Source of the DNA: an uncultured archaeon
Lineage (GTDB): Archaea; Asgardarchaeota; Lokiarchaeia; Sigyniarchaeales; SOKP01
Length of the DNA: 64,000 nucleotides
Assembly: GCA_964493715.1 (NCBI GenBank)
Contig: CAZBPC010000002.1
Span: forward strand, 73,637 to 137,636
Reading direction: 5' to 3'
Numbering within the stretch: position 1 is the stretch's first letter; every line of letters starts with the position of its first letter. Under the pieces are notes generated by a model, which saw only the letters and a program-made list of their open reading frames with translations, made no database searches and had not been told where the DNA came from. Below are positions 10,017 through 46,152 of the stretch, piece after piece. The position numbers were made by a program, and so were the translations under genes.

Positions 10017-10973
10017 ATGGGTGCACTTTTTGGGCTTCATAATAATTACATGCCAAATAATAGGATGTATAAAAATTGTAAAAAAATTATAGCTAAAAGT
10101 ACTTTAGATGAAATGCGAGTTAATTTCAAAAAAAATATTGAAAATTACACAAAGAAATTTCCACATTTGGTAGAGTTATTATTATTGTTTCATTCTGAAA
10201 TTTTGAAATTTATTAATGAATATGAGATAATTCTTCAACCAAAACCTACTCCAGATTATCAAATGTTCAATCACCATCCTAATCTTAAAAGAGATTATTT
10301 TGAAATAATTGATACATATGAAAAAGCGTACTGGCTTGGATTTCTATTTGCTGATGGATGGATAGCAATAGAACATAAAAAATCTGGAGATTATTATCGA
10401 ATGGGGCTCCAATTATCATATAAAGACAAGGATGTGCTTCAGAGGTTTTGTAAAAGTATTGGATTAAATCCTAAATATATAAAAAATCGTCTTGTTGGAA
10501 GTGATTTTAGCACAAAATTATATCATATAGGTGAAATTAGATGGGGAGATCAAAAAATAGCTCAAGATCTTGTAAAATTAGGGATAATATATGGATACAG
10601 TGAACAAAAAGGAAGGCGCGTTAAAACCCCTAGACTTCCAATACTACAGAACCGAAAACTGATGTTGGCATTTTTATCAGGTTTCTATGATGGTGATGGC
10701 ACTCTTGGATTTGATAAGAAGACAGGCAAAATTCGTCCAAGAATTGCCTCTTCTGAAATAGACTTTTTACATCAAATAAAGCAATATTTCGGAATAAAGT
10801 ATCAAATTTCTACAACAGAAATGGTTAAATTTAATATAAGAACAGAGAAAATGGTTAATATAATAGGTAGTAGACTAGATGTTGATAAAGAAATATTTAA
10901 AGAAATGTTAAGTATATTTAAGAATAGTCTTGAAAGAAAGAGAGTTCCAATAGATTTCTTTAATGAAAAATAG
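10017..10973 (+). CDS. Free-standing two-motif LAGLIDADG homing endonuclease-like protein (frame open upstream to about 9756)
   Basis: YWLGFLFADG and FLSGFYDGDG helices; no intein or intron context visible. Confidence 0.8.
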   Translation: MGALFGLHNNYMPNNRMYKNCKKIIAKSTLDEMRVNFKKNIENYTKKFPHLVELLLLFHSEILKFINEYEIILQPKPTPDYQMFNHHPNLKRDYFEIIDTYEKAYWLGFLFADGWIAIEHKKSGDYYRMGLQLSYKDKDVLQRFCKSIGLNPKYIKNRLVGSDFSTKLYHIGEIRWGDQKIAQDLVKLGIIYGYSEQKGRRVKTPRLPILQNRKLMLAFLSGFYDGDGTLGFDKKTGKIRPRIASSEIDFLHQIKQYFGIKYQISTTEMVKFNIRTEKMVNIIGSRLDVDKEIFKEMLSIFKNSLERKRVPIDFFNEK

Positions 10974-11057: not shown

Positions 11058-12244
11058 ATGGCTAAAAATGTAAAGCGAATAGGAATTTTAACGGGTGGTG
11101 GAGTTTCATTTAAGATACATCTTTTTGAACCACAGACTGTCCCGGATTAAATTCAGTGATTTATGGGATAATGCTGAAAGCTTACGATGCGGATGTAGAA
11201 TGCGTAGGAATTCTAAAAGGATGGAAAGGTTTTGTTGAAAATTTAACGATTCCCTTAAACATTGCAGAACATGACGATCTTCATACCAAGGGAGGGACAA
11301 TATTGTATACAAGTCGTACTAATCCATTTAAAGGAGTTGAGGCTAAAGAGGAAAAAGCAAAGCAATTAACTAATCAATTCAATGTGTTAGGTATAGATGC
11401 ATTAATTGCTATCGGTGGAGATGATACTCTTGGAGTAGCAGATACCATGTATAAAATTGCTAATGCAAATGTAGTAGGGGTTCCAAAAACGATAGATAAT
11501 GACTTGAAGGGTACTCATTACACTTTTGGGTTCTGGAGCGCTGTACAATTAGCTTCTAATGCGATGGATAATCTCACAACAACCGCACGTTCACACCAGC
11601 GTGTTTTTGTAGTTGAGATTATGGGAAGAGATGCTGGTTTTTTAACCATGTATAGTGGAATTTCAGCAGGAGCTGATATAATATTGGTTCCTGAAACCCC
11701 CTTTAGTTTAGAAAAAGATATTGTTGACGTACTCAAAAAAAGAGCTAATGCTGGGTATAAATATCACATCATTGCCACATCTGAAGGAGCTCATCCTCAT
11801 ATCGATTCATTAAATCGAGATTTCAAGACAATTTCAAAGGAAACAATTGATAAATTACCTAAAGATACATTTGGGAATCCTTTATTAGCAAAGTTAAACA
11901 TTTCACAAATTATCGTTGATGAATTAAATTTAAGAGACGATCTAAAAGAAGTATTTCTCCAAAATGACGTCGAATTCGAATGCAGGAGCGTAGTTTTGGG
12001 ACATACAATGCGAGCTGGAACACCTAATTCGTTCGATAGAATTTTGGGATTGAGATTTGGATTAGCAGCCATGAATATGGTTTTAGAGTCTAAATTTGGG
12101 AACATGGTTTCGCTTCAAGGTAATAAAATTAAAACCATGCCGCTTTCGGAAGGGGTAAAAAAGAAATATATTACCTCAGATAGTGATAAAATGGAATTAA
12201 GAGATTTACTTGTAAAAGTGCGGTATCTATCGAAACAAAAATAG
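11058..12244 (+). CDS. pfp: PPi-dependent phosphofructokinase (PfkA superfamily), 384 aa after removal of intron 11104-11135
   Basis: Spliced N-terminus MAKNVKRIGILTGGGDCPGLNSVI; GGTILYTSR, GGDDT and PKTIDND (Asp/Lys signature of PPi-type enzymes), EIMGRDAG, LGHTMRAG. Confidence 0.9.
11104..11135 (+). other. 32-nt bulge-helix-bulge (archaeal tRNA-type) intron in pfk mRNA
   Basis: Central helix GTGG 11098-11101 / CCAC 11130-11133; bulges AGT 11102-11104 and AGA 11134-11136; inner stem TTCA/TGAA plus AAGA/TCTT hairpin; removal gives GGA GAC TGT (G-D-C). Confidence 0.88.
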
Positions 12245-45495: not shown

Positions 45496-46152
45496 ATGCT
45501 AATGATTCAAGGTAATGAAGTATCTTTAGAAGCGGAGATTTTTCAGTCAGGAAATGAATTTAACAATACTGTAGTCTTAATATGCCATCCTCATCCTCAA
45601 TTTCTGTAGGGTTTCCTAAGAAAGGGAAAATATGGAGGATCGATGCATAATAATGTTATATCTTATATTTTCAATCATTTAGTTAAAAATGATATCTCGT
45701 GTTTACGTTTCAATTTCAGAGGTGTAGAAAGATCAACTGGAAAACATTCAGGAGGAAGTGGAGAGTTATCTGATGTTCATAGTTGTATTACATTTCTCCA
45801 AAAAAGAGAGATACAAAGGATAATAATATGTGGGTATTCTTATGGTGCCGCTATCGGATGCTCAGCTGTAAATTTTTCAGAATCAATCATAGGATTCTGC
45901 GCGATTTCTTTTCCGTGGGATTTTATGGGAAAAAATTACAAAAATCTCTCACAAACTGAAAAACCTAAACTATTTATTCAAGGGGATCAAGATTCTATTG
46001 CTAGTTTTGATAATTTCTTGTCTCATTATAATTTCTATAAGGAACCCAAAGAAAAAATTATTATCAAGGGAGCTGATCACTTCTATTGGGGATTAGAAGG
46101 AATTTTAGCAGATAAAGTGGTTAAATTTGTAAAAAAGTTCAATCCATCTTAA
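45496..46152 (+). CDS. Alpha/beta hydrolase (HPHP-x-x-GG-x-M family), 208 aa after removal of intron 45600-45629
   Basis: Spliced ..ICHPHPQYGGSMHNNV; RFNFRGV, GYSYG nucleophile, QGDQD, GADHF. Confidence 0.88.
45600..45629 (+). other. 30-nt bulge-helix-bulge intron in alpha/beta hydrolase mRNA
   Basis: Central helix TCCT 45594-45597 / GGGA 45624-45627 (one G-U); bulges CAA and AAA; inner stem TTTCT/AGAAA plus TAGG-gttt-CCTA; contains in-frame TAG at 45607-45609. Confidence 0.85.

Follow-up and report, generated by a model that had tools for sequence, protein, structure and literature searches.

A probable 30-nucleotide bulge-helix-bulge intron in an alpha/beta hydrolase coding sequence of an Asgard archaeon

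How a gene with a stop codon in the middle of a conserved motif can encode an intact enzyme is the question raised by an alpha/beta hydrolase gene (positions 45496-46152, forward strand) of an uncultured Asgard archaeon. The stretch of DNA that was analysed, called the window here, comprises 64,000 nucleotides (nt) of the assembly GCA_964493715.1 (contig CAZBPC010000002.1, which is C2 of the source genome G000), and all positions refer to it unless another locus is named. In the hydrolase gene, 35 codons read from the ATG at 45496 end with ..VLICHPHPQ, an in-frame TAG follows at 45607-45609, and the same frame resumes as YGGSMHNNV; translation of the unspliced RNA would terminate at this TAG after 37 residues. 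The answer proposed here, to which we assign a probability of about 85%, is that the 30 nt at 45600-45629 are a relaxed bulge-helix-bulge (BHB) intron within the hydrolase coding sequence, spliced by the endonuclease EndA and the ligase RtcB.

The predicted exon 1 (45496-45599) runs from M1 through the second base of the Gln codon in HPHPQ and is conserved as protein in the orthologs, and the predicted exon 2 (45630-46152) begins with the third base of that codon, continues as YGGSMHNN.. to the stop codon, and contains the motifs GYSYG, QGDQD and GADHF. Removal of 45600-45629 joins CA to A TAT and so yields HPHPQ-YGG; the registers displaced by -1, +1 and +2 yield an identical spliced product because of the repeated A and U at the junction. 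The read-through protein, with the stop represented as X, matches the Pfam family Abhydrolase_11 (PF20408) with 38.3 bits against a cut-off of 27, and matches the PDB entries 3trd (4.3e-24), 2i3d (3.9e-17) and 2fuk (2.3e-10). Both full-length alignments (3trd and 2i3d) are interrupted by a gap, exactly 10 residues long, between HPHP(Q/L) and (Y/H/F)GG and retain the GxSxG nucleophile elbow and the Asp and His motifs, and GYSYG, QGDQD and GADHF line up with the same motifs of 3trd. Exon 1 had no match when searched alone against Pfam. The insert is single-copy, with no similar sequence elsewhere in the genome. The original prediction, which had been made from the letters of this stretch, placed the start codon, the HPHPQ segment, the TAG and the resumed frame exactly where they are found; its assignment of the gene to the alpha/beta hydrolases with a Ser-Asp-His triad agrees with the PF20408 match and the 3trd alignment, and its view of the insert as an addition to the family is borne out by the 10-residue gap.

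Orthologs of the hydrolase gene were sought among 40 relatives in a first search and were found in 22 of 24 genomes of the window's genus, many of them with one internal stop of varying kind. Thirty loci were fetched and 28 were read, two being without the motif; an insert is present at the site in 17 of the 28 and absent from 11 (6 within the genus and 5 in other families). In a wider sample of 119 genomes of the family, representing 13 genera, 108 have an ortholog, and 28 of these carry an insert at the hydrolase site, 24 among 38 genomes of the window's genus and 4 among 10 of a second genus. All 28 inserts were read at the sequence level, the 11 new ones from the wider sample directly. They are 33 nt (n=19), 30 nt (n=6) or 31 nt (n=3) long, and the stop codons inside them vary among TAA, TGA and TAG. 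The nearest relative of the window carries a 31-nt insert; inserts of this length shift the reading frame, and therefore neither read-through nor reassignment of the stop codon can rescue them, and only removal restores the protein. When the insert was removed in silico, full-length proteins of 203-215 residues were obtained for 16 of the 17 orthologs of the first set, the seventeenth ending at the end of its contig. In a third genus, two genomes have a stop codon elsewhere in the gene and no insert at the hydrolase site.

The intron-less members of the genus read HPHPQ(F/Y)GG, which is the exact sequence predicted for the spliced product by the BHB rule of cutting after the second base of each bulge; the original prediction had derived the HPHPQYGG junction by the same rule, and the relatives carry it in their DNA. 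The splice product predicted for G013 and G021 is letter for letter the sequence that their intron-less sister G018 carries, and intron-less genes are nested in intron-bearing clades elsewhere also, G012 grouping with G024 and G015. On a protein tree of 27 orthologs, the presence or absence of the intron requires 5 changes; branches with good support force at least 2 of them (the tree covers a single gene and has no root). This pattern may be read as an old hydrolase intron that has undergone repeated precise losses, with repeated gain as the alternative. Three loci of the second genus (L090, L091 and L092, of genomes G091, G064 and G076) have an unrelated 30-nt intron at the same hydrolase site, with the same product, in which the central helix (CCUC with GNGG) lies one base away from its position in the main type and the inner stem has 10 base pairs (bp), and another genome of that genus (G089) carries the window's type of intron. 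The two types within one genus point to replacement or a second gain. The second type shares a predicted structure with the main type without sharing its sequence.

The BHB structure was read for the insert and its flanks on the forward strand. In the central helix (H), the exon strand UCCU (45594-45597), which consists of the third base of the second His codon and the second Pro codon and is invariant in 17 of 17 aligned orthologs, pairs with the non-coding intron strand GGGA (45624-45627), which is invariant in all 25 introns of the main type; the window's helix includes one G-U pair. On one side lies the 5' bulge CAA (45598-45600), with the predicted cut after 45599, and on the other the 3' bulge AAA (45628-45630), with the predicted cut after 45629; the latter is AAG in 5 of the 25 main-type introns. 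The inner helix (h') with its loop GUUU occupies 45601-45623 (45601-45605 with 45619-45623, and 45607-45610 with 45615-45618), with pair probabilities of 0.85-0.89. An outer pairing between the exons has its 5' strand at 45587-45593, built from Pro and Gly codons, and its 3' strand at 45631-45640: A45593 pairs with U45631 and 45587-45592 with 45635-45640, so that one A-U pair and three unpaired bases lie between the distal helix and the 3' bulge. One locus (L095, of G061) has GAA as its 5' bulge and a spliced product with Glu in place of Gln; the first bulge base is thus not fixed.

A single BHB-shaped register that gives the right product is present in all 28 inserts. All 4 pairs of the central helix are formed in 26 inserts and 3 of the 4 in the other 2, the inner helix has at least 4 contiguous pairs beside the 5' bulge in every one, and cutting after the second base of each bulge gives the correct in-frame product as judged from the intron-less orthologs and the gap in the PDB alignments. 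Among 100,000 shuffles of the 30 nt of the window's own insert, 0.17% had a complete central helix (4 of 4 pairs) together with 4 or more inner pairs in any of 4 registers. Covariation was assessed by scoring an alignment of 17 orthologous sequences against the BHB structure. In the inner stem, 5 of 9 pairs have changed on both sides, one of them being C-G in 8 sequences, U-A in 7 and U-G in 2, and another G-C in 10, A-U in 3, U-A in 1, G-U in 1 and unpaired in 2. The covariation score is 0.143, compared with 0.094 for shuffled alignments (none of 500 reaching the observed value) and at most 0.105 for controls with slid partners. The central helix and the A-U pair past the 3' bulge are invariant in this alignment, and the intron GGGA and the AA that follows are fixed in the 25 main-type introns while the loop and stem drift. 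RNAalifold returned a ladder of 2-bp helices for the same alignment, which was dismissed as physically weak.

Nucleotide differences were pooled over 120 pairs, with G014 dropped, and the ratio of nonsynonymous to synonymous differences per site (pN/pS) came to 0.53 in exon 1 and 0.33 in exon 2; between G000 and G022, the pS of exon 2 is 0.398 and its pN 0.059. These values indicate that purifying selection acts on both exons. The second His-Pro pair, which contains the exon strand of the central helix, is encoded by CAT CCT in all 28 intron-bearing genes, whereas the first His-Pro pair varies freely and intron-less orthologs also use CAC, CCC, CCA and CCG at the second pair, a comparison that is weakened by the relatedness of the genomes.

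The genome was examined for the enzymes that such splicing would need. G000 is a draft genome of 3.68 Mb in 160 contigs, with 31% G+C and an archaeal 16S rRNA, and is scored as 100% complete. ARAGORN finds only 27 tRNA genes in it, 13 of them with introns, several at non-canonical positions, and the predicted tRNA introns are 11-39 nt long; a tRNA-SeC is present, and many tRNA genes of G000 are probably too interrupted to be called. Nothing was found by ARAGORN and Rfam on the 64-kb window. Two genes of G000, at C5:37733-38356 and C58:18440-19057, encode the endonuclease catalytic domain PF01974. One of them, the EndA alpha subunit, has the catalytic subunit of Aeropyrum pernix as its best match (1e-36), with the Tyr, His and Lys positions read as kept and the crenarchaeal loop segment aligned without a gap; the second, beta-like subunit matches the enzyme of M. 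jannaschii and has Ser at the presumed catalytic His position. The catalytic roles of Tyr, His and Lys were presumptively assigned to the aligned positions. RtcB is also encoded, in two segments that match its Pfam model at positions 1-46 and 48-426. The host thus appears to possess both a two-subunit EndA of the type that acts on relaxed motifs and an RNA ligase. Part of the text of PMC5829648 reports (alpha-beta)2 EndA in Asgard archaea and ties the loop to broad specificity, and a portion of bioRxiv 10.64898/2026.10.13.758758 gives two EndA paralogues in 44 of 60 Asgard genomes; the predicted two-subunit enzyme of G000 fits the (alpha-beta)2 type.

Splicing of the hydrolase message may be envisaged as follows. 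In the pre-mRNA, UCCU of the exon (in the His-Pro codons) would pair with GGGA of the intron to form a 4-bp central helix with a 3-nt bulge on each strand (CAA and AAA), the intron hairpin adjoining the 5' bulge. The two-subunit EndA would cut after the second base of each bulge, and RtcB would join the exons and probably circularise the 30-nt intron. The spliced mRNA would then encode a 208-residue enzyme containing HPHPQ-YGGSM, and translation of any unspliced RNA would stop at the TAG.

The hydrolase insert is one of at least seven in six genes of G000, the others being those of phosphofructokinase (pfk), NAD synthase, mevalonate kinase, RtcB and an EF-2-like protein (with two inserts); the inserts in these other genes are 29-32 nt long. 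The pfk insert, which lies in the window (11104-11135, forward strand) between GGG and DCPG, is 32 nt long and causes a frameshift. Its central helix is formed by 11098-11101 with 11130-11133 (GUGG/CCAC), with bulges AGU (11102-11104) and AGA (11134-11136) and an inner stem of 4 bp, and pfk exon 2 matches positions 11-276 of the 277 of the Pfam PFK model. It has the same geometry as the hydrolase insert and an unrelated sequence, as had been proposed of the pair. Among 23 pfk orthologs read, 3 (those of G000, G020 and G019) have the insert and 20 lack it; in G020 and G019 the helix is GCGG with YCGU, a compensated change of exon and intron, and an Asp codon is split across the insert. Directly upstream of pfk is a free-standing gene for a LAGLIDADG-type endonuclease-like protein (10017-10973, forward strand; Pfam LAGLIDADG_3, 2.3e-08).

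The remaining inserts of G000 lie outside the hydrolase and pfk genes. That of RtcB (29 nt, frameshifting; L068, 1837-1865, reverse strand) is on contig C2 outside the window and inside GGVG-Y-DINCG; exon 1 accounts for model positions 1-46 and exon 2 for 48-426. It is seen only in G000 and G001 among ten orthologs read, and open-frame lengths suggest that the remaining orthologs likewise lack it. The RtcB Tyr codon is divided between the exons (T-AC), and Tyr is present in all 8 intron-less orthologs read. The NAD synthase insert (L070, 849-878, forward strand) and the mevalonate kinase insert (L067, 1654-1683, reverse strand) are each 30 nt long, include a stop codon, and correspond to a gap of exactly 10 residues in alignments with 2e18 and 2hfs, respectively. 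The EF-2-like gene has inserts of 30 nt and 31 nt (L069, 2512-2541 and 2635-2665, reverse strand), the 31-nt one lying at the P-loop and recognised by eye only; the first insert in this gene was placed by our own reading together with what we take to be the P-loop motif, and the two short EF-2 exons had no matches in Pfam. In six other species, pfk contains a distinct insert, roughly 30 nt long and holding two or three stop codons, between IAIGG and DDTL (L046, L048 and L055, of G009, G005 and G016; L053, L056 and L057, of G013, G018 and G021), which is not present in G000 and whose central helix is imperfect, with 2-3 of 4 pairs by our own reading.

Six of the seven G000 inserts came from a scan that demanded the geometry, and the seventh was recognised by eye and has a helix with only 3 of the 4 pairs. 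As the scan required both the BHB shape and the fusion of frames, neither counts independently for the scanned inserts; the exact fit to family motifs does, and the BHB geometry restores these motifs exactly in pfk, RtcB, NAD synthase and mevalonate kinase. A scan of the genome with the strict BHB pattern gave 90,252 matches. An open-frame fusion filter left 1806 of these, against 1576-1722 in four decoys with displaced structure, and a requirement for at least 2 G-C pairs together with a codon-usage score (threshold 0.1) left 41, against 24-36 in decoys, neither constituting an excess. In a structure-free fusion scan (442,185 combinations in 11,518 clusters), BHB shapes were not in excess at any length from 24 to 40. 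The scans show no excess over decoys, and further examples therefore rest on homology and not on scan statistics; scans of this kind cannot provide a census, and their sole use was to put forward candidates for a check by homology. Those rejected are one at 11147-11169, which overlaps the true pfk exon 2, one at 255-270, which lies between two separate genes, and C88, which lies between an EamA gene and a DUF3604 gene; candidate C108 is uncertain.

Besides the outcome of the scans, several features of the fold weigh against a spliced BHB intron at the hydrolase site. The minimum-energy fold differs from the BHB structure and its energy is ordinary (z = -0.73), although a BHB-compatible fold is only 0.7 kcal/mol higher (-15.0 versus -15.7). 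The outer exon helix is weak, with 0-1 pair adjoining the 3' bulge across the inserts, and the distal 6-bp exon pairing is specific to the window, 63.7% of cells being paired across 17 orthologs; the strict hBHBh' motif, with an outer helix h beside the 3' bulge, is not formed. The central helix is constant within the main intron type and so gives no covariation, and the homology of the 25 main-type introns inflates the shuffle test. Cleavage and ligation themselves we infer from the sequence. The original prediction had the coordinates of the central helix, both bulges and the inner stem correct, and the inner stem it drew covaries in the ortholog alignment that it had called for, with the insert in 28 of 108 genomes. 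Its exon pairing ATCCTC/GAGGAT exists in the window and is weak across orthologs; its BHB motif holds for all 28 inserts in a relaxed and not in the strict form; and the folding that it had suggested as a check returns a BHB-compatible structure close in energy to the minimum, which is itself not BHB. The predicted motif is accordingly best regarded as a relaxed, HBh'-like form of BHB with a weak outer helix, a kind of motif that is named in part of the text of PMC5829648.

The weak outer helix, the plain fold that is not significant, and the fact that cleavage by EndA is deduced could be accommodated if the RNA were removed by other machinery, such as another nuclease and ligase or a guide-RNA system, the BHB-like shape being incidental. 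The same relaxed motif is, however, reported for the cbf5 intron in part of the text of PMC2738675; the seven inserts of G000, unrelated in sequence, have only the BHB geometry in common, both of the intron sequences found at the hydrolase site form a BHB, and the EndA of G000 is of the broad-specificity type, so that removal by other machinery is considered unlikely. If instead the RNA were never cut and the ribosome hopped over about 30 nt, as in the translational bypass of phage T4 gene 60 or of the yeast mitochondrial byps elements, the similar size, the hairpin and the stop codons within the gap would be explained, but several features do not fit. Programmed bypass would call for matching take-off and landing codons on either side of the gap, and here these do not match (CAA versus AAA or AAG); hopping would give Asp and not Tyr at the Tyr codon of RtcB, which is split as T-AC, and the Asp codon of pfk in G020 and G019 is likewise split. 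The precise losses at the DNA level also fit a spliced RNA intermediate, and bypass is regarded as very improbable.

A broken gene, or one expressed in two pieces, might be suspected from the ATG four codons past the junction, and the open reading frame at 45643-46152 alone scores 36.9 bits for PF20408; the gene would then be a pseudogene or the source of a protein that starts at 45643 and lacks the HPHP segment, which the original prediction had named as the finding that would overturn it. That outcome is contradicted by exon 1, which in 16 intron-bearing species is open, has kept its start codon and evolves under purifying selection, and by the ATG at 45643, which is not conserved, Leu standing at the equivalent residue in G016. 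The length class and the fold of the insert have moreover been kept over the divergence of the genus (pS up to about 0.5), and RtcB, pfk, NAD synthase, mevalonate kinase and the EF-2-like gene would all have to be inactivated in a genome scored as 100% complete; a broken gene too is regarded as very improbable. An error of assembly or sequencing, or the insertion of a small repeat element, comes to mind with a fragmented draft of 160 contigs, but the insert recurs in 28 separately assembled genomes and has no related sequence in its own, and this explanation can be given almost no weight. Self-splicing introns of group I or II, which have a ribozyme core of hundreds of nucleotides, were rejected on the length of the insert, only 30 nt, and on the absence of any Rfam match in the window. 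A relaxed BHB intron removed by EndA and RtcB is therefore preferred over each of these explanations.

Beyond the single gene, it is likely that this Asgard family is a hotspot for the entry of tRNA-type mini-introns, each about 30 nt long, into protein-coding genes, with gain and precise loss still going on between species. The introns appear to be placed at GC-rich codons for Gly and Pro within the best-conserved motifs, likely because half of the splicing motif has to come from the exon in a genome whose G+C content is 31%. With an insert in its own gene, RtcB would have to ligate the mRNA from which it is made, which suggests a self-dependent loop. Gene callers will report such genes as truncated, split or pseudogenes, and in G000 the annotation of pfk, RtcB, NAD synthase, mevalonate kinase and the EF-2-like gene is affected; metabolic reconstructions of these genomes are therefore biased. 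The family also offers a testable system, in which gain and precise loss can be traced at the species level and short RNA substrates are feasible.

Several known systems may be compared with the hydrolase insert. In eukaryotes, the mRNAs of HAC1 and XBP1 are spliced by the nuclease IRE1, which recognises stem-loops, with RtcB as the ligase in animals, as part of a regulated stress response. The resemblance lies in a very short mRNA intron that is removed by an endonuclease without a spliceosome and whose removal changes the frame; the difference is that IRE1 acts on stem-loops, whereas here the tRNA-splicing endonuclease would act on a BHB. The introns of archaeal pre-tRNAs, including the non-canonical ones of Asgard archaea, have the motif, the cutting rule, the enzymes and the size range in common with the hydrolase insert, and heavily interrupted Asgard tRNA genes are described in parts of bioRxiv 10.64898/2026.10.13.758758 and PMC11291895. 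They differ in that the host RNA here is a messenger, so that the exon side of the motif has to be protein-coding as well, and in that the hydrolase intron lies at GC-rich codons for Pro and Gly within a conserved motif. In Haloferax volcanii, a BHB intron in the 5' untranslated region (UTR) of HVO_1309 is likewise an mRNA substrate of the archaeal splicing endonuclease, with 46 nt excised (PMC7714728, in part); that intron interrupts no reading frame, lying in an untranslated leader, and the host enzyme is of the homodimeric type (PMC10485636, in part).

The closest parallel is the intron of cbf5 in Crenarchaeota (Desulfurococcales and Sulfolobales), which, in those parts of PMC2738675 and PMC10485636 that bear on it, is like the hydrolase insert in being short, inside the coding sequence and of relaxed BHB form, in having a host with a hetero-oligomeric EndA, and in being gained and lost among related species. 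A portion of PMC7714728 (2020) states that, tRNA and rRNA introns apart, the cbf5 mRNA had the one BHB intron on record, and adds one 5' UTR case, and a passage of PMC10485636 (2023) counts two archaeal genes with such introns and expects more. In the literature searched, with most subscription journals and supplementary tables outside its scope, only cbf5 was found among coding sequences and no BHB intron was found in a protein-coding gene of Asgard archaea. The cases differ in gene and in phylum, cbf5 encoding a pseudouridine synthase and the present gene a hydrolase of Asgard archaea; in number, at least six further such inserts being present in five other genes of the same genome; and in the kind of evidence, splicing of cbf5 having been shown experimentally and that of the hydrolase being predicted from sequence. 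The hydrolase insert thus adds a new, well-supported case from another gene and another phylum, and is one of several in its genome. Should they be spliced as predicted, these inserts would be the first group of BHB introns in coding sequences other than cbf5. They would also be the first such introns in the archaea most closely related to eukaryotes, a host that bears on the distribution of introns and of non-spliceosomal mRNA splicing before eukaryotes.

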